Shown here: in pieces, positions 1 through 9,708 of the stretch
Layout of the letters: each line of letters begins with the position of its first letter
Numbering within the stretch: the first letter of the stretch is position 1
Source of the DNA: Calditrichaceae bacterium
GTDB lineage: Bacteria; Calditrichota; Calditrichia; Calditrichales; JBFXGD01
Direction of reading: 5' to 3'
NCBI GenBank assembly: GCA_050178385.1
Contig: JBFXGD010000057.1
Span: forward strand, 1-20,208
DNA length: 20,208 nt
The notes under the pieces: generated by a model
The model's database searches: none
What the model saw: only the letters and a program-made list of their open reading frames with translations
Told to the model about the DNA's origin: nothing
Position numbers and translations under genes: made by a program

Positions 1-753
1 ATATCTGTCTAATAATTCTCCCGCTGTGTAAACGGTGCAAAAATGCTCCAGTTTTTCGATGACTATTAATGTTGCCTTCTCTTTTCGCGACTCATTTAAA
101 GCTTCTTCAACCCATTTTTGCCAGACAGGTATTCCGGCTAAATAATCTGTTATTATCCCGGAAATAGTTGATTTTGCATTCTCAATTTTACCAGCCGCCT
201 GATCCATTTTTTTTGAGGCAAGGATATAATCACCTCTTTCAGCCGCGTATTCGCTTTCTAAAAGGAGAAACTCCCCGGAAATGGTTTCATTTTGGGATCT
301 TTTTGAAGCAGGGAGATAGGAATACCGGTTTTTATAATCACCGAAGACATTTTTGAGATATGGTATCCCAATGGTTAATGAATTTTTCAGCGAATCGTGC
401 TTTGCTCGTACCAGTAGAGTAAGATTTATAGCATCAATAACGGTCTGATCCGCCATTAACAGAGCATTCCTGTAATTACGAAGAAAGACCGGTTTTTTAT
501 TCTCCGCATCCCAGGAACGTCTGGCATTTGTCTGATCGGCGATTAATGTATTCCAAAGTTGAGGTGTATATCGATCAGATCCGGTTTTTCTCGCTTGATT
601 TACAGCGGTGTCCATTTTAATAAACTGACTTACGGGAGGTTTATTTATTCTATAGAACGCGAAAAAAGTAAACGCAATTATCAGGAAGATTCCCGAAACC
701 GCCAGTATTATTTTGATAAAAAAGTTTTTTTTTGTTTTTCTGTTAATCAACAT
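1..753 (-). CDS. Membrane-anchored protein with an N-terminal helical (DUF4398-like) region and a probable C-terminal L,D-transpeptidase (YkuD) domain; truncated by the window edge
   Basis: Not in the ORF track because it has no stop inside the window. Translated by hand: ATG at 753, in-frame TAG upstream at 771-769, open for 251 codons to base 1. It begins MLINRKTKKNFFIKIILAVSGIFLIIAFTFFAFYRINKPP (basic N-terminus plus TM helix) and ends WQKWVEEALNESRKEKATLIVIEKLEHFCTVYTAGELLDRY, which resembles the first beta strands of YkuD domains (IxIDKxxxxLxxYxxGxxxxxY). The catalytic HxxC motif would lie outside the window. Confidence 0.75.
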   Translation of the reverse strand, partial: MLINRKTKKNFFIKIILAVSGIFLIIAFTFFAFYRINKPPVSQFIKMDTAVNQARKTGSDRYTPQLWNTLIADQTNARRSWDAENKKPVFLRNYRNALLMADQTVIDAINLTLLVRAKHDSLKNSLTIGIPYLKNVFGDYKNRYSYLPASKRSQNETISGEFLLLESEYAAERGDYILASKKMDQAAGKIENAKSTISGIITDYLAGIPVWQKWVEEALNESRKEKATLIVIEKLEHFCTVYTAGELLDRY

Positions 754-787
754 CAGTCCGCATATATGCTAAGGTAAAGGCAATTAT

Positions 788-825
788 AAAAAACGTTCCG
801 CCGCGAATAAATCTGCAGCGGAACG
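788..825 (-). terminator. Intrinsic terminator between the lipoprotein gene and the downstream L,D-transpeptidase-like gene
   Basis: Minus strand reads CGTTCCGCTGC-loop-GCGGCGGAACG (11-bp stem, one G-U) followed by TTTTTT, about 35 nt after the lipoprotein stop. Confidence 0.8.
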
Positions 826-858
826 CAAGTTAATGAAATAAAATTGTCAGGAAAAGGA

Positions 859-1473
859 TTACCTTTTTTTCTGAATCGCCATCTTTTTCGCAATCGCGGT
901 CTGAAGTTCAGCATTTAGTGAATTAACTTTATCTAATGCTGCTCTTGCTTTATCACGGGCGGTAAGAAAGTCATTGCCATTCTGAGCTGTTTTTGCTTCG
1001 TTGACAACGGTTTCTACTATTTTTAGTTCATTCTGAATGCTTTCGAGAGCCGCGCGTCCCTCTTTACCTTTAGGGGCTTTTGAAATCAAAGTTTCGGATT
1101 CTTTTATTGAGCTGTCTAAATCCTGAAACAATGTTTCGGTTTCCTTTTGAATCTCCTGTTTCTTCACTGCTACGGCTTCTATCGATTTCCCAGCGGTTTC
1201 TGAAGCTGACTGCAATAAAGCGGTGGCCTTGGAATAACTGCGCATTAATGAAAATTTCGAATTCTGAGCTTCGATTTCAGTCATCGCCGAGTCCATTTTA
1301 CTCTGTGCTTCATTATACATTTCCGGTAAATAACGATTTACTTCGGCCTGATTCGCGGCTTCAAAAGAGGCTTTTGTTTCGTCAATTAAAGCCTGAGGGG
1401 CTTCAGAACAACTTGTAAGTAACCCTACTAATACAATTAAAGATAGGGATATAGCAAATGCCTTAGATTTCAT
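859..1473 (-). CDS. Alpha-helical/coiled-coil lipoprotein (DUF4398-like), 204 aa
   Basis: Signal peptide II with lipobox LTS-C22. The mature part is A/E/K-rich and helical, with a Lys-rich C-terminus (AIAKKMAIQKKR). Strong SD AGGAGG at 1483-1478. Confidence 0.85.
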   Translation of the reverse strand: MKSKAFAISLSLIVLVGLLTSCSEAPQALIDETKASFEAANQAEVNRYLPEMYNEAQSKMDSAMTEIEAQNSKFSLMRSYSKATALLQSASETAGKSIEAVAVKKQEIQKETETLFQDLDSSIKESETLISKAPKGKEGRAALESIQNELKIVETVVNEAKTAQNGNDFLTARDKARAALDKVNSLNAELQTAIAKKMAIQKKR

Positions 1474-1851: not shown

Positions 1852-3354
1852 ATGTTTAAGAAGATTCTGATTGCCAATCGGGGTGAAATTGCCCTAAGAA
1901 TTATGCGTACCTGCCGTGAAATGGGAATATCCTCTGTAGCCGTATTTTCTGATATTGACCGGAAAAGCCCCTTTACATATTACGCTGACGAAGCTTATGC
2001 TCTTGGTGGATCAACCTCTCAGGAAAGTTATCTGAAGTGGGAAAAGATTATTGAAATAGCCGCTAAGAGCGGTGCAGGAGCTATTCACCCGGGATATGGA
2101 TTTTTATCTGAAAACGCTGAATTTGCGGAGGCGGTCGTAAAGGCCGGTTTAGTATTTATCGGACCGCCGCCGTCCGCGATCCGTCTCATGGGGAATAAGA
2201 CCCAGGCGCGAAAATTGATGATTTCAAATGGCGTGCCCACCGTCCCCGGGACGGAAGATGCAATCACCGATGTAAATAAGGCCAGAGAGATAGCAAACAA
2301 AATAGGCTATCCCGTTTTGATAAAAGCGGCTGCCGGCGGAGGCGGTAAGGGAATGCGGCTGGTTGAGAATGATTCTCAAATTATTGAAGCTATTGAAGGC
2401 GCTGCAAGAGAAGCAAAAGCCGCCTTTAACGATGAATCGGTTTATATTGAAAAATTTGTGGAAGAGCCGCGGCATATTGAATTTCAGATATTGGCGGATT
2501 CTTTTGGAACGATCATTCATCTCGGCGAAAGGGAATGTTCCATTCAGCGCCGTCATCAAAAAGTGATCGAAGAATCACCATCTTCACTTCTAACTGAAGA
2601 ACTTCGCGAGAAAATGGGTATAGCAGCGATAAAGGCGGCAAAATCATGTGGTTATGTCAACGCGGGAACCATAGAATTCCTGGTTGATAAACATTTAAAG
2701 TTTTACTTTTTGGAAATGAATACACGTTTACAGGTTGAGCATCCGGTTACTGAAATGGTCAGTGGTCTGGATCTTGTTGAGCAGCAAATCCGCATCGCCG
2801 CAGGTAAAAAGATGACGGTAAAATCCAGTCTTAAAAAGTTCTGGGGACACGCTATTGAATGCCGGCTTTACGCTGAAGATCCTTCCAATAATTTTTCACC
2901 GTCCCCCGGAAAAATTATGTTTTTAAAATCCGCCGACGGCCCCGGTATCAGGGAAGACAGCGGAGTTACACAGGGTAGTGAGATCTCGCTTTACTATGAT
3001 CCGATGATTTCAAAATTGATCGCCTGGGGAAGCGACCGTGAACATGCCATAAACAGGATGCTGCGCGCGCTGAAGGAATATGAAATTCTTGGAATTCATA
3101 CGACGATTCCGTTCCTTATACGTGTTCTGGAGAATCCTTTATTCAAAAAGGGCAAATTTACTACAAAATTTATTGAGGAAAATAAAGAACAATTATTGAC
3201 TGAAGACAGGGACGGCGCTGAGATCGCCAGTTTTGCCGCCGTTCTGGATCAGCTTTATGAGAAAAGCCGTATTAATTTGACATCAAATAATCATGCTGCA
3301 AAGTGCGTTTCCACCTGGAAAATGAAAAACAGAAAAAAAAATCTGGGGAACTGA
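1852..3354 (+). CDS. accC: Biotin carboxylase subunit of an acyl-CoA (acetyl/propionyl-CoA) carboxylase
   Basis: KILIANRGEIA, HPGYGFLSEN, GGGGKGMR, ERECSIQRRHQK, EMNTRLQVEHPVTE, ECRLYAEDP and YDPMISKL motifs. Confidence 0.96.
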   Translation: MFKKILIANRGEIALRIMRTCREMGISSVAVFSDIDRKSPFTYYADEAYALGGSTSQESYLKWEKIIEIAAKSGAGAIHPGYGFLSENAEFAEAVVKAGLVFIGPPPSAIRLMGNKTQARKLMISNGVPTVPGTEDAITDVNKAREIANKIGYPVLIKAAAGGGGKGMRLVENDSQIIEAIEGAAREAKAAFNDESVYIEKFVEEPRHIEFQILADSFGTIIHLGERECSIQRRHQKVIEESPSSLLTEELREKMGIAAIKAAKSCGYVNAGTIEFLVDKHLKFYFLEMNTRLQVEHPVTEMVSGLDLVEQQIRIAAGKKMTVKSSLKKFWGHAIECRLYAEDPSNNFSPSPGKIMFLKSADGPGIREDSGVTQGSEISLYYDPMISKLIAWGSDREHAINRMLRALKEYEILGIHTTIPFLIRVLENPLFKKGKFTTKFIEENKEQLLTEDRDGAEIASFAAVLDQLYEKSRINLTSNNHAAKCVSTWKMKNRKKNLGN

Positions 3355-3866
3355 TGAAAATATTCGCCGACACTAAAAAAAATAAATTTGAATTTGAGTC
3401 ATTTTTAAAAGATGATAATCAAATCGTGATAAAAAACGGATCCGAAATTACTTATGATATGGTTGCGCTTGGTGACGGCCGATACTCTCTGATAAAGGAG
3501 AACAAATCATATCTGGTTCATCTGATCAAAAAAGATGATAGCTACTATGTTCATGTTCTCGGAGATTTGTTTGATGTTCGCGTAGAAGATGAACGGGTAC
3601 GTAAAGTAAAAGAATTGGTAGAAAAATCATCCGGCGCTCCTGCCGGACATATACTTAAAGCGCCGATTCCGGGTCTTGTGGTGAAAGTGAATGTGAAGGC
3701 GGGGCAGGAAGTAATGAGCGGAGACGGTCTTCTCGTGCTGGAAGCGATGAAAATGGAAAATATAATAAAGGCGCCTTATAATTGTCTGGTGACAGAGGTG
3801 GCGGTCAATGAAAATACAACGGTTCAGCAAGGTCAGGTGCTTATTAAACTTAAATCCCTCAGCTAA
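3354..3866 (+). CDS. Biotin carboxyl carrier protein with an N-terminal beta-rich extension (170 aa)
   Basis: APIPG...G...LVLEAMKMEN biotinylation motif. The likely start is the ATG at 3354 overlapping the accC stop (TGATG), not the GTG at 3303. Confidence 0.92.
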   Translation: MKIFADTKKNKFEFESFLKDDNQIVIKNGSEITYDMVALGDGRYSLIKENKSYLVHLIKKDDSYYVHVLGDLFDVRVEDERVRKVKELVEKSSGAPAGHILKAPIPGLVVKVNVKAGQEVMSGDGLLVLEAMKMENIIKAPYNCLVTEVAVNENTTVQQGQVLIKLKSLS

Positions 3867-3940
3867 TACCCCGTTATACGCGGATAAATCCATATTATCT
3901 GGACCATGTGAAAAATATATCAAAATAATAAAAAAAATCT

Positions 3941-3969
3941 TTGCGCCCATATTTTCTATATCCTAAATT
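3941..3969 (+). promoter_or_regulatory. Putative sigma70 promoter of the mutase genes
   Basis: TTGCGC-17 bp-TAAATT preceded by an A-rich UP-like tract; GGAG SD before the ATG at 4042. Confidence 0.45.
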
Positions 3970-4041
3970 CTTGTTTCAGGACTAAATTTCCTGATAATTT
4001 GGGTTTCAGTGGAAGCGGAACGATAAAACCGGAGCAATTCC

Positions 4042-6210
4042 ATGAGAGCAAACGATCAAATCAATAAATCTGCACGAAGAATTGGATTTCTGTCGGAAGA
4101 TTTTCCGATTCCAACCTATGATGAATGGCGTCTGGAAGTTGATAAATTGCTAAAAGGCGCGCCTTTCGATAAAATCATGTTGACTGATACTTATGAAGAT
4201 ATCAGATTAAAGCCGTTGTATTTGAAAGATGATGTTGACTGGACAACGGTTAAAAATCATTTCCCCGGTTTTCCCCCGTATGACAGGGCCATTGAGTCCT
4301 ATGGCTCCGTATTGAACGGCTGGAAAATCGCCCAGCGTCTGCCCTATGGATCGCCTGAACGATTCAATCATGCACTGAATAAGGATTTGAAGCGGGGGCA
4401 AAATGCGATTTATCTGACACCGGACAATATAACTGTTTCTTGTCTTGATTCCGATTACGGCAAAGCGGGTGAAGTCGGACAAGGCGGCGTTGCCCTTTCA
4501 ACCCTTGAAGATTTTGAAATAGCGTTAAGGGGCATTGATTTTGAATCAACGCCTATATTTGTAGAGGCATATTCTTCCGGTATGATGATGGGGGTATTTC
4601 TTGCTTCTATTCTGCTCAAAAAAGGTGTTTCCACAAAAATTCTTAAGGGAGCCATTCAAACAGATCCGCTCGGAGAACTCGTAAAAAACGGCCGTCTATC
4701 GGTTTCCATGAAAATGTCTTATGACGAAATGGCGCGTTTAACAGCATGGGCAGTAGAGAACGCCCCAAATTTGCAAACCATCGGAATACATACATCGCCG
4801 TATCGTAGCGGGGGGTGCAGCGCCGCACAGGAACTGGCTTTTGCTATTGGAACGGCCGTTGAGTACATCAGGCAGATGCTGGAGAAAAATTTTACGATAG
4901 ATGAAATCGCGCCCCGGATACGCTTTAATTTTGTGCAGGGTTCAAATTTTTTCATAGAAATAGCCAAACTTAGGGCAGCGCGCGCATTATGGAACAGAAT
5001 TATTCAGATTCTCGCAGGTAATGATCTCTCCGGGAAAATGCATATTCACGCGGAAACTTCATTCTCGAATAAAACTTGTTATGATCCGTTTGTGAACATA
5101 TTACGAAACACCACGGAAGCATTCGCCGGTATTCTGGGCGGAATTGACAGCATGCATGTGGGAACTTTTGATGAACTTCTCCGTGAACCGGATGATTTCT
5201 CACGCCGGATCGCCAGAAACACGCAAATTATTCTCATGGAAGAAAGTCACCTTGATCGGATAATCGATCCGGCTGGAGGATCGTATTATATAGAGAACCT
5301 TACAAAAGAGATAGCCGAGAAATCCTGGAAACTTTTTCAGGAAATAGAAAAGCTGGGAGGAATGCAAGCAGCGCTGGAAAAAGGATTCCCGCAGGATCAG
5401 GTAAAAGAAATCGCAAACAGGCGAATGCAGAATATAGCTTCCCGCAGGGATAAAATTATAGGCACAAACGTCTATCCGGACCTAAACGAAAAGAAAATCG
5501 AACATAAGATTTCTGATCCGGAATTGATATATAATGAAAGAGTGAACTATCTTAACCGCTACAGAACATCGGGAAATGTTAAAAAACATATTCTCCCTCT
5601 TGAAAAACTTGTTGAAATACAAAAAGCGTCATCCGAAAATGTTATGGATGCCGCGATCGATGCGGTTATTTCCAGCGCGACGATTGGTGAAATTCGGTCA
5701 TCACTGCGGGAAGGAGATGATCATTTTCCTGAAATCATTCCTGTCGAGCCGTTCCGAGGCGCTGAAATGTTTGAAAAACTCAGACTGAATATGGAAAACT
5801 ACAGAAAAATTAACGGAAAAGTCCCCAAAATATTTCTCGCGAATATGGGAAGTCTTTCTTCATATAAAGCCAGATCGGATTTCGCGGCGGGATTTTTTGA
5901 AATCGGTGGATTTGAAATTGTTGACAATCAAGGATATGAAACATCCTCTGAAGCAGCAAAGATGGCTCTGGAGTCTGGGGCCGGTGTTGTCGTTATCTGT
6001 TCATCTGATGAAAAGTATCCGGAATTTGTCCATCCGCTGACGGAAAAAATCAAATCATCCGCGCCTGAAAAAATAGTTGTCCTGGCGGGGTATCCAAAGG
6101 ATCAAATCGATCAATATAAGCAGGCCGGAGTGGATGTTTTTATCCATATTCGTTCAAATGTCTATGAAATATTATCGGACTTACAGAAAAGATTGGGAGT
6201 CATTGAATGA
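4042..6210 (+). CDS. mutA: Methylmalonyl-CoA mutase small (beta, non-catalytic) subunit
   Basis: MCM-family motifs ([58 protein letters not shown]). The C-terminal B12-binding-like domain lacks DxHxxG. Confidence 0.9.
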
Positions 6211-8384
6211 GCCGGATACCTGATTTTGCTAAAATAGATTTTAAGTTTGACGCTGCTGATACAGATGAAAAAATATGGCGCCGGAAGCTTGAAAAAGAAA
6301 CCGGTAAAAACCTGGATGCGCTTATCTGGCAGACCAATGAACAAATTCCTGTAAAGCCTCTTTACTCCCATGACGACATTAAAGATCTGGAGCATAAGGA
6401 TTACGTTGCCGGTATCGCGCCGTTTCTAAGAGGCCCATATGCCACAATGTATGCCATGCGTCCCTGGACTGTAAGGCAATATGCCGGTTTTTCCACCGCT
6501 GAAGAAAGTAATGCTTTTTATAAAAGAAATTTAGCGGCGGGACAAAGAGGATTGTCAGTCGCTTTTGATCTCGCGACGCACCGCGGGTATGATTCGGATC
6601 ATCACAGGGTTGTGGGTGATGTCGGGAAGGCCGGTGTTGCCGTTGATTCTATCCTTGATATGAAGATATTGTTTGATAGCATTCCTCTTGATAAGATTTC
6701 GGTGTCTATGACCATGAATGGCGCCGTGCTGCCGATTTTGGCCTTTTATATTGTTACCGCGGAAGAACAGGGTGTAAAAATGGATCAGCTTTCCGGTACG
6801 ATTCAGAATGACATATTGAAAGAATACATGGTTAGGAATACCTATATTTATCCTCCGGAACATTCGATGAAGATCATCGCTGATATTTTTGCTTTTACTT
6901 CGAAGAATATGCCGAAATTTAACAGTATCAGTATTTCAGGATATCATATGCAGGAAGCCGGCGCCACCGCGGATCTGGAAATGGCTTACACGCTGACGGA
7001 CGGTCTCGAGTATGTCAAAACGGGAATAAAGGCGGGAATCGATGTGGACGCTTTCGCGCCGCGTCTGTCATTCTTCTGGGCGCAGGGAATGAATTATTTT
7101 ATGGAAATCGCAAAAATGAGAGCCGCGCGGCTGATTTGGGCGAAATTAATTAAGCAATTTAATCCGAAGGATCCGAAATCCATGGCCCTTCGCACCCATT
7201 CCCAGACATCAGGATGGACACTTACGGAGCAGGATCCGTATAATAATGTTATACGCACCTGTATTGAAGCCATGGCTGCCGTGATGGGTCATACACAATC
7301 CCTTCATACCAATTCTTTGGATGAAGCGATCGCTTTACCGACCGATTTTTCCGCAAGGATCGCGAGGAATACCCAGTTATATCTGCAGGAAGAAACAGGA
7401 ATCTGCCGTGTGATTGATCCCTGGGGAGGTTCGTATTATGTTGAAGCGCTGACAGACGCGCTGATGCAGAGAGCTCTTGACCATATTGATGAAATCGAAT
7501 CTCTCGGCGGGATGGCCAAAGCGATAGAAACCGGCATTCCGAAGATGCGGATTGAGGAAGCTGCGGCGCGGAAACAGGCGCATATCGACTCCGGAAGGGA
7601 AACTATTGTCGGCGTGAATAAGTATCGTTTGGAAAAGGAAGATCCTATCGAGATACTCGAAATTGACAATACTGCTGTCAGAAAAACGCAAATCAAGAGA
7701 CTTCAGAAGTTGAAATCCGGCAGGGATGAAACAAAAACTAAGCACGCGCTTGAATCACTTGCCAAATGCGCTGAATCAGGTGAAGGCAATCTGCTTGAAC
7801 TGACGATTGAAGCCGCGCGCGCCCGGGCTACACTTGGGGAAATCTCAGACGCGATGGAAAAAGCGTTTGGCCGGCATAAAGCAACGATCCGATCCATTTC
7901 AGGCGTTTACAGTAAAGAATATTCAGATGAGGATGATGTGAAAAAAGTACGTGACTCAGCAGATGAATTTGAAAAAATTGAAGGCCGGCGTCCAAGGATA
8001 CTGATCGCCAAGATGGGACAAGACGGACATGACCGGGGCGCGAAAGTGATTGCCACCGCCTTCGCCGATCTTGGTTTTGATGTGGATATAGGGCCGTTGT
8101 TTCAGACACCTGAAGAAACTGCCCGTCAGGCAATTGAGAACGATGTTCATGTGATCGGGATGAGCTCACTCGCCGGGGGACACAAAACACTTCTGCCGCA
8201 GCTGATGGATGAATTAAAAAAACTCGGACGGGAAGATATCATGGTTGTCGCGGGCGGGGTTATTCCGGCCCAGGATTATGAATTTCTGAGAGAGAATGGC
8301 GCTTCCGCCATATTCGGCCCGGGAACGATCGTTCCGGTTGCCGCGCAAAAAGTGCTGGATGAATTATTCAGGCGAATCCGGTAA
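6207..8384 (+). CDS. scpA: Methylmalonyl-CoA mutase large (alpha, catalytic, AdoCbl-binding) subunit
   Basis: [11 protein letters not shown] (Tyr typical of methylmalonyl-CoA specificity), [21 protein letters not shown] and MGQDGHDRG (DxHxxG). ATGA overlap with the small subunit gene. Confidence 0.97.
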
Positions 8385-8409
8385 AGTGTTTCAGTAAAAT
8401 GATTTTTTC

Positions 8410-8439
8410 AAAAAAGGCGGACAATGGTTCGCCTTTTTT
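8410..8439 (+). terminator. Intrinsic (possibly bidirectional) terminator after the mutase genes
   Basis: AAAAAA-GGCGGAC-AATG-GTTCGCC-TTTTTT. Confidence 0.85.
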
Positions 8440-8571
8440 AATTAATATCTGCAATTTGCGCTTATCCCTCATAATTCAGGTTCGTAAAAATTGATTTGTT
8501 TAATAATTTTAGTGATCTTACATTAATTGAAGTATAATTCCATCATACCATGAGACAGAAGGCGAGAGTCA

Positions 8572-9708
8572 ATGACTCCAAAAAAGCAAAAGCCTGAATG
8601 GGCTCCGGTCAATCCGGATGAATCGTTTGCTTCAAACGTGGTCGGGGGTGTTGAAGGAGGACATGACGGAATGTCAGGTAATTCGGATAAAAGATCCGAA
8701 AATGCTGTTCATGCCCGTAAATCCCTAAACACTGAAGACTATGTTAAAGGGGTTCTTAACGGCGACCGTACTGTTTTGGGCCGGGCGATTACACTGGTTG
8801 AAAGCAATGCGCAAACTCATAAAGAGCAGGCGAGAGAAGTGCTGAAACAATTACTTCCCCATACAGGAAAATCAATTCGTATTGGCATTTCCGGTGTTCC
8901 CGGCTCCGGAAAAAGCACTTTCATTGAATCACTTGGAATATACCTGATTGAACAAGGTTTCCGGGTAGCTGTTTTGGCGATTGATCCAAGCAGCAGCATC
9001 AAAAAAGGCAGTATTCTCGGTGACAAAACCAGAATGGAGAAACTGTCAAGGAATCCGGGCAGTTTTATTCGTCCATCTCCTTCCGGGGGAACCTTGGGAG
9101 GTGTAGCCGGCAAAACAAGGGAAACAATGCTGGTTTGTGAAGCAGCCGGATATGATGTGCTTCTGATAGAAACCGTTGGTGTTGGGCAAAGTGAAATCAC
9201 CGTACGCTCGATGGTTGATTTTTTCCTTTTACTGCAAATCGCCGGGGCGGGTGATGAGCTTCAGGGCATCAAAAAAGGAGTTATGGAGATCGCGGATGCC
9301 GTTTTAATAAATAAGGCCGACGGAGACAATAAATCCCGGGCTGAGGCGGCGAAGCAGGACTTTGCCATGGCGCTGCATTATCAGGAACCAGCCACAGAAG
9401 GGTGGGAAGCGAGAGTACATACCTGCTCGGCTATAACGGGCCAGGGAATTTCTGAAATTTGGAACATGATTGAAGAGTTTCGCGAAGTCACAAATGCTTC
9501 AGGTGTTTTTGAAAGGCGACGCCGATTGCAGGCAAGGGACTGGATGAACTCTCTGGTTCAGGAACAGCTTAAGCATCTTTTCCTTCATCATCCGGAAGTG
9601 GAGAAGGTGATGAAAAAAATGGAAGATGATGTGATGGCGGGAAATATTCCGCCAGCCGCCGCCGCGGATTATCTGCTCAAATTGTTTGAGAATTCTCTCA
9701 AAAGATAA
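8572..9708 (+). CDS. meaB: Methylmalonyl-CoA mutase-associated GTPase (metallochaperone) MeaB
   Basis: P-loop GVPGSGKST, AIDPSS, GSILGDKTRM, FIRPSPS, ETVGVGQSE, GDELQGIKKG and NKAD motifs; adjacent to the mutase genes. Confidence 0.96.
   Translation: MTPKKQKPEWAPVNPDESFASNVVGGVEGGHDGMSGNSDKRSENAVHARKSLNTEDYVKGVLNGDRTVLGRAITLVESNAQTHKEQAREVLKQLLPHTGKSIRIGISGVPGSGKSTFIESLGIYLIEQGFRVAVLAIDPSSSIKKGSILGDKTRMEKLSRNPGSFIRPSPSGGTLGGVAGKTRETMLVCEAAGYDVLLIETVGVGQSEITVRSMVDFFLLLQIAGAGDELQGIKKGVMEIADAVLINKADGDNKSRAEAAKQDFAMALHYQEPATEGWEARVHTCSAITGQGISEIWNMIEEFREVTNASGVFERRRRLQARDWMNSLVQEQLKHLFLHHPEVEKVMKKMEDDVMAGNIPPAAAADYLLKLFENSLKR

Follow-up and report, generated by a model that had tools for sequence, protein, structure and literature searches.

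Near the start of a 20,208-nucleotide (nt) stretch of Calditrichaceae DNA (the window, meaning the whole stretch that was analysed), a lipoprotein gene (A) and a YkuD-family gene (B) are encoded on the minus strand. They belong to a four-gene operon (A-B-C-D) that may serve to tie A to peptidoglycan and to release it again. The window starts with the first nucleotide of contig C57 (JBFXGD010000057.1), where gene B is cut open. Two minus-strand open reading frames (ORFs) were confirmed, with B lying 105 nt downstream of A. The following features were assigned:

859–1473, minus strand: gene A, a 204-residue lipoprotein (Cys22), predicted five-helix rod and candidate tether
1408–1473, minus strand: signal peptide and lipobox (LLTS-C22) ending at Cys22, from the sequence, with Cys22 in 148/150 homologues
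1063–1077, minus strand: APKGK loop of A, residues 133–137, between helices 3 and 4, the predicted membrane-distal tip, with Lys137 as candidate acceptor
787–826, minus strand: hairpin and U-tract between A and B (−22.9 kcal/mol, z −5.1)
1–753, minus strand: 5′ part of gene B (251 of ~382 residues, open at the contig start), with a hydrophobic helix, a rod domain and the start of a DpaA/YafK-type YkuD domain, the rest being on contig C230
652–723, minus strand: predicted membrane anchor of B, ~residues 11–34, a hydrophobic stretch after basic residues (by eye)
139–645, minus strand: rod domain of B, ~residues 37–205, paralogous to mature A by alignment and profile comparison

Contig C230 of the same assembly (locus L001) shares 507 nt with the start of the window (positions 1–507 of both contigs) at 90% identity. 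Of its 51 mismatches, 48 were found in one 307-nt part and three in the last 200 nt, and C230 was therefore regarded as a strain-variant copy and not an identical one. The clustering may reflect strain heterogeneity or a chimeric join within the bin. C230 completes the YkuD domain of B and then carries C (240 residues) and D (275 residues). A sequence-only reading of the window had proposed that B continues into a YkuD domain, and this was borne out by the PF03734 matches of B on C230 (67.5 bits, cut-off 23.4; expectation value (E) 2.5e-18) and of the intact 382-residue B in a genome of the same genus (L022; E 6.7e-17), which has all four genes intact. The source genome has a second, B-less A-C-D locus on C312, the end of its D lying on C40. 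The source assembly, which is 94% complete, contained only three YkuD domains, all in its two operons, and no Lpp domain (PF04728) was found in it, in line with the non-Lpp setting suggested earlier. Among named relatives, the one nearest to A, at 92% identity, carried the label Calditrichaceae.

Conservation and distribution of the operon

A GTDB scan with the loop motif of A gave 406 relatives, the best 80 of which were examined. Because this A-anchored scan selects for the loop, the scan was repeated in metagenomes from gene C, using the top 80 of at least 569. A motif-free set of A homologues comprised the query and the best 149 of 772 representatives (n = 150). The locus sets share some of their loci, and related genomes do not count as independent samples.

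The order A-B-C-D was found in 67 of the 80 A-anchored loci, and thus A and B co-occur in other genomes, as the sequence-only reading had expected. Among the other 13, two kept this order, one gene being split, eight were cut by contig ends, one had B moved 5.4 kb away, one was A-C-D and one had A alone. In the C-anchored loci, A was present in 40/40 with at least 2300 nt upstream, and D in 62/62 with at least 600 nt downstream. Of 61 relatives, 15 had A, and exactly these 15 also had D. In this set there were 18 A loci besides the window: eight four-gene loci (B split in three), nine A-C-D loci and one at a contig edge. In the phylum of a KSB1-type genome, a strong A match was detected in 23 of 81 genomes, 21 of which also had D, and D without A was not found in any of the 81. 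In the class of a genome that groups with Bacteroidales by tree, only 3 of 251 genomes had a strong A match, seed included. These linkage counts, set against 15/61 and 3/251, describe an operon that is tightly linked but patchily distributed. According to taxonomic labels, the same-order operon exists in Calditrichota, KSB1/Zhuqueibacterota and environmental Bacteroidota, with genomes labelled Mariniphaga/Prolixibacteraceae among the carriers; further A homologues or look-alikes, labelled Krumholzibacteriota, Acidobacteriota and Nitrospirota, are known from protein sequence alone.

B or D was frameshift-split or fragmentary in several genomes (L026, L027, L033, L110, L111, and L214), which fits either a dispensable B or assembly error. 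A small (~120 residues), secreted-looking ORF followed D in some Calditrichota loci (L001:3207–3578, L022:8227–8598, and L025:7498–7866). It is unannotated, with a YKxxx...[DE]G-like tail, and it was not conserved (4/66 in the wider set).

The rod domain and the YkuD enzymes

The structure model of A (predicted local distance difference test (pLDDT) 95) comprised helices 27–42, 50–71, 81–132, 137–165, and 169–203, which formed an N-terminal DUF4398-like bundle and a second bundle with one 52-residue helix common to both. From 52 residues at 1.5 Å each and the helix order, we infer a rod ~78–80 Å long, in which one end would carry the lipid and an aromatic/hydrophobic loop (residues 74–80) and the opposite end the APKGK loop together with a basic C-terminal tail. 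The rod or spacer (ruler) role suggested earlier fits this model. Residues 23–107 matched the DUF4398 protein PA2901 (4fm3; Z 12.2, root-mean-square deviation (rmsd) 1.7, 76 aligned, 25% identity), and the whole rod resembled the N-terminal domain of Borrelia BB0323 (6rjw; Z 12.1, rmsd 7.1, 154 aligned), a Z near 12 being attainable for helical bundles that are not related. Against DUF4398 (PF14346), the window protein scored 14.2 bits (cut-off 27.9), and a match at E 0.001 or better was found in 39/143 A homologues (best 8e-9). For A and D, Foldseek returned nothing at E 0.001 or better. A had no PF04728 match, and its five-helix model differs from the single-helix trimer of Lpp. Weak Pfam and NCBIfam matches (BamJ, FlgL, EzrA, LipL71, and others) were far below cut-off and were not used.

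The sequence-only reading had aligned mature A by hand with the N-terminal part of B, with a single 7-residue gap. We recovered this alignment as two diagonals at offsets 14 and 7. The 37-residue block had exactly the 11 identities claimed, and the 109-residue block had 17–21 depending on its start, with the claimed 18 obtained for starts 23–27. The local alignment score of 82 was reached by 0/2000 composition shuffles (mean 32, standard deviation 5.6, maximum 59) and by 0/2000 heptad-preserving shuffles (maximum 56). Profile–profile comparison (hhalign) of A and the B N-terminal domain gave a probability of 98.6 and E 1e-15 over 171 columns. Plain BLASTP detected only 15/48 identities (E 7e-5). 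The A profile also matched B N-termini in unrelated genomes (E 1.8e-16). The N-terminal halves of B homologues kept Pro26 (72/72), Tyr48 (70/72), and Arg78 (71/72) of A, and the membrane-proximal aromatic loop (columns 74–80) is common to both proteins. Chance coiled-coil similarity was rejected by the shuffles and the profile comparison; A and the rod domain of B are paralogous.

The catalytic His and Cys of B were present in 70/72 homologues, and the motif lies outside the window. The motif predicted earlier was found, although with a spacing of 12 (H-x12-C) and not the expected H-x14-17-C. The best solved relative of the catalytic domain was DpaA (8ikr, E 1.7e-9), followed by the carboxypeptidase Pgp2. 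DpaA activity needs Lys83 and Tyr109, and DpaA has Ala at Cys+2 where transpeptidases have Arg (PMC10653827). Residues of B were numbered from the 8ikr alignment and judged by published criteria (PMC10653827, PMC8263019, and PMC10434034). Ala, and not the anchoring-type Arg, was found at Cys+2 in 70/72, the other two being gapped; the Lys83 equivalent was present in 72/72 and the Tyr109 equivalent in 69/72. A Trp-lined D-Ala pocket is described for carboxypeptidases only (PMC10653827). At the corresponding position, two residues before the catalytic His as placed by the Pgp2 alignment and PMC10653827, B had Glu in 70/72. An invariant Trp nearby (NWT) could substitute for it. Unlike the compact single-domain DpaA/YafK proteins, B has a membrane helix and a rod of 170 residues in addition to YkuD. 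By its active-site signature, B is of the hydrolase type.

C consists of a hydrophobic helix and a YkuD domain (54.3 bits against the PF03734 cut-off of 23.4). Its catalytic His (73/73) and Cys (72/73) were conserved, and its motif THGC[VI]R is of the SxGChR type, with Arg at Cys+2 in 72/73. Its best solved relative was a Klebsiella L,D-transpeptidase (4lzh, E 3e-8). C matched PRK10260 and PRK10190 weakly and stayed below the NCBIfam equivalog cut-offs for PRK10260, PRK10190, and LdtE (~30 bits vs. 480–583). Judged from these residues, C is transpeptidase-type, with a signature opposite to that of B.

The sequence-only reading had seen in B a dedicated transpeptidase for attaching A, with the duplicated domain as a possible docking module. 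B does adjoin A directly in most loci and carries its fold. However, the hydrolase signature (Cys+2 Ala) was found in 70/72, and B was absent from 9 of the 18 relatives' loci that keep A, including the second locus on C312. A-C-D forms the invariable core to which B is an optional addition, so B probably does not do the attaching; the B-less loci and the Cys+2 Ala signature led us to reject this role, which we consider very improbable.

D had no Pfam match. Its model (pLDDT 71) matched YkuD-family structures at ranks 1–19 (best Z 9.1, rmsd 4.5, 103 aligned), and the next unrelated structure had Z 4.7; the Foldseek rows were weak (E 0.01 or above). D also aligned weakly end to end with C (probability 22). 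No conserved His or Cys was found among the D homologues: the H..C pattern occurred in 2/71 and a Cys in the last 60 residues in 3/71. Since it appears to have a YkuD fold without the conserved His or Cys, D was taken to be a pseudo-enzyme.

The P-x-G-K loop and a proposed envelope tether

In the motif-free set, position 137 of A was Lys in 143/150 and Arg in 4/150, and nearby positions interchanged Lys and Arg freely (77 Lys and 44 Arg at 135; 67 Lys and 27 Arg at 140). P-x-G-K was found in 52/52 operon lipoproteins reached via gene C. One A-like gene outside the operon was without it, and GK occurred in 0/72 loops of the B rod domains. Two other acceptors were considered. Lys105 seemed less likely than Lys137 because B has Lys or Arg there too (40 Lys and 25 Arg of 72). 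A C-terminal Lys as in Lpp was rejected as not conserved: the last residue of A was Lys in only 43/150 and Arg in 49/150, and 115/150 had a Lys within the last six residues.

Second stand-alone A copies with an intact APKGK loop were observed in genomes with a full operon (L204 and L205). Their neighbours are a two-component system and, by eye, a small ORF of NTF2-like type, and they are possible substrates in trans.

The hairpin between A and B is likely a partial terminator or an mRNA stabiliser giving excess A. A similar hairpin followed A in 37/72 loci vs. 6/72 shuffles, and hairpins followed B in 2/70, C in 4/71, and D in 14/69. A consensus scan, whose promoter count was at chance (4 found vs. 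3.8 expected), did not list it. The codon usage of A was at the 96th percentile among ~2700 ORFs and that of B, C, and D at percentiles 2–48, a ranking based on a heuristic 40-gene reference and a weak overall bias. Hairpin and codon usage suggest that A is an abundant structural protein in excess over the enzymes.

On these sequence comparisons, we give slightly better than even credence to the proposal that A is a reversible covalent envelope tether like the Lpp/L,D-transpeptidase (Ldt)/DpaA system, in which C would attach A to peptidoglycan and B would detach it. With help from D, C would join a stem peptide to A, probably via Lys137, and the catalytically dead D would be the likely partner or substrate adaptor of C. 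B, standing on a copy of A's rod that has no loop, would then cleave the link between A and peptidoglycan.

The main rival is peptidoglycan remodelling without a covalent protein link: C would make 3-3 cross-links, B would trim stems or cleave cross-links, D would be a scaffold, and A would be a non-covalent outer-membrane activator or spacer docking on C/D via its loop. It ranks first among the rivals because Ldts that anchor proteins and Ldts that form 3-3 cross-links are not separable by lineage, nor by the motif of C (PMC10434034), and because DpaA-like proteins may be carboxypeptidases. Carboxypeptidases share Lys83 and are likewise without the Arg (PMC10653827 and PMC8263019), one of them, Pgp2, was the second-best structure for B, and the loop could be a binding epitope. 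In contrast, B has Glu in place of the carboxypeptidase D-Ala-pocket Trp, Lys at 137 is hardly ever replaced by Arg, and the apparent excess of A over the enzymes does not favour it. We regard this alternative as unlikely, though worth serious weight.

The same covalent chemistry could also operate with A as an inner-membrane lipoprotein that runs alongside the rod of B and connects that membrane to the wall. A precedent is Dickeya OutB (PMC12274547). A and B share the rod and the membrane-proximal aromatic loop, and B is predicted to be anchored in the inner membrane. However, the residue after the lipobox Cys of A was always Ala, Lys, Gln, or Ser (66/66), with no Asp among them, although the Asp rule is one for E. 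coli and may not hold for these phyla. We consider this arrangement improbable.

Several observations weigh against the covalent tether. The curated DpaA model NF040599 scored B at 45.5 bits, vs. a cut-off of 365, and PMC8263019 notes that DpaA-like proteins may be carboxypeptidases, which also do not have the Arg. The distribution of the operon is patchy, A offers no conserved C-terminal Lys acceptor, and under a different alignment 17/72 B domains had Lys in column 137. In three orphan A copies (one in a single-contig genome, two at contig ends), with C and D not found in the genomes, the P-x-G turn had decayed and Lys137 was kept in all three, so this residue may be structural. APxGK was likewise kept where no intact C or D was found, in L043 (a 2.4-Mb assembly) and in L214 beside a D fragment only. 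The source genome has four OmpA-domain proteins, and thus a non-covalent tether is already available. Its second A copy had ordinary codon usage (66th percentile).

A more specific version of the covalent proposal is an internal loop-lysine tether unrelated to Lpp, with a DUF4398-derived rod, a C-D transpeptidase/pseudo-transpeptidase heterodimer that would make the link, and a DpaA-like amidase that would cut it, with its lysine-loop-free copy of the rod setting the working height. We put this forward tentatively. If it were true, a substrate would be named for some DpaA-like enzymes of Lpp-less phyla and a role assigned to a YkuD pseudoenzyme.

Comparison with known systems and related rods

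From these analogies, the operon likely works like Lpp with LdtA–C and DpaA, or like OprI with LdtPae2 and LdtPae3, although A is no Lpp and B and C fall outside the curated DpaA and Ldt families. As in E. coli, where Lpp is served by LdtA/B/C and DpaA (LdtF/YafK), there is a helical lipoprotein with one Arg-type and one Ala-type YkuD enzyme, and B resembles DpaA in its Lys83 and Tyr109 equivalents. The span estimated for A, ~78 Å, is near the ~85 Å from the outer membrane to the wall (PMC12729407). Unlike Lpp, A is a 183-residue five-helix rod without PF04728 or a conserved C-terminal Lys. Further differences from the E. coli system are that all genes lie in one operon, that the enzymes are predicted to be membrane-anchored, that the putative detacher carries the fold of its substrate, and that an apparently dead YkuD paralogue invariably accompanies the enzymes.

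Pseudomonas OprI is anchored by LdtPae2 and putatively released by LdtPae3, an SxGChR and SxGChA pair like C and B (PMC10434034). In contrast to A, OprI is an Lpp homologue linked via a C-terminal Lys-Arg peptide (PMC10434034), and the available text of that source mentions no pseudo-enzyme or rod-fused hydrolase. Coxiella LimB is a lipoprotein tethered to mDAP (meso-diaminopimelate) via an internal lysine, Lys21 (PMC12729407). It is likened to A by lysine placement and not by sequence, and it differs in being Coxiella-specific, with its enzyme described as unknown (PMC12729407). The rod of A also resembles BB0323, which is needed for outer-membrane stability (PMC5462797). BB0323 reaches peptidoglycan via LysM, whereas A lacks a binding domain and is encoded alongside YkuD enzymes.

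The known tethers in the available part of a 2025 review are all proteobacterial, with Bacteroidota unmentioned (PMC12729407). No description of the operon was found in the literature, subscription journals being outside the search. Lpp occurs in only ~3% of genomes, and DpaA-like enzymes are widespread in Lpp-less diderms including Bacteroidetes and Acidobacteria, with substrates reported as unknown (PMC8263019). For such enzymes, the operon supplies specific candidates for the substrate, the residue, and the attaching and detaching enzymes. If the tether proposal were true, covalent lipoprotein tethering would extend to Calditrichota, KSB1, and Bacteroidota, Lpp-less bacteria would have their own reversible envelope tether, and two unusual designs would be added, a hydrolase carrying the fold of its substrate and an obligate dead YkuD partner.

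Rod relatives tied to peptidoglycan include proteins with DUF4398-like repeats and an OmpA-like C-terminus (by eye) and BB0323 with its LysM. DUF4398-like repeat proteins were observed in L216, L217, and L218, and two complete ones (~490–530 residues) end in an OmpA-like domain (by eye). A dedicated search found no longer or fused forms of A, which is weak evidence, and single fusions were seen elsewhere. In L212:1150–2841, an A-type rod lies C-terminal to a Ser/Thr kinase-like domain (by eye) and a hydrophobic helix and keeps PRGK. In P0128, it lies C-terminal to a TIR-like domain (by eye) and a hydrophobic helix. These fusions could represent an envelope-sensing use of the rod domain. A separate family of ~206–260-residue lipoprotein-like rods was found in the KSB1-type phylum (L208, L209, L210, L211, L213, and L215), in which a conserved P-x-x-[ST]-Y-x-D-Q-N replaces the GK loop, and profiles detected no YkuD-type neighbours.

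Divergent from A, positions 1852–9708 of the window carry genes for a biotin carboxylase, a biotin carrier, two methylmalonyl-CoA mutase subunits, and a MeaB-like GTPase (by eye). These are ordinary housekeeping genes, and their adjacency to the operon was kept only within the genus.
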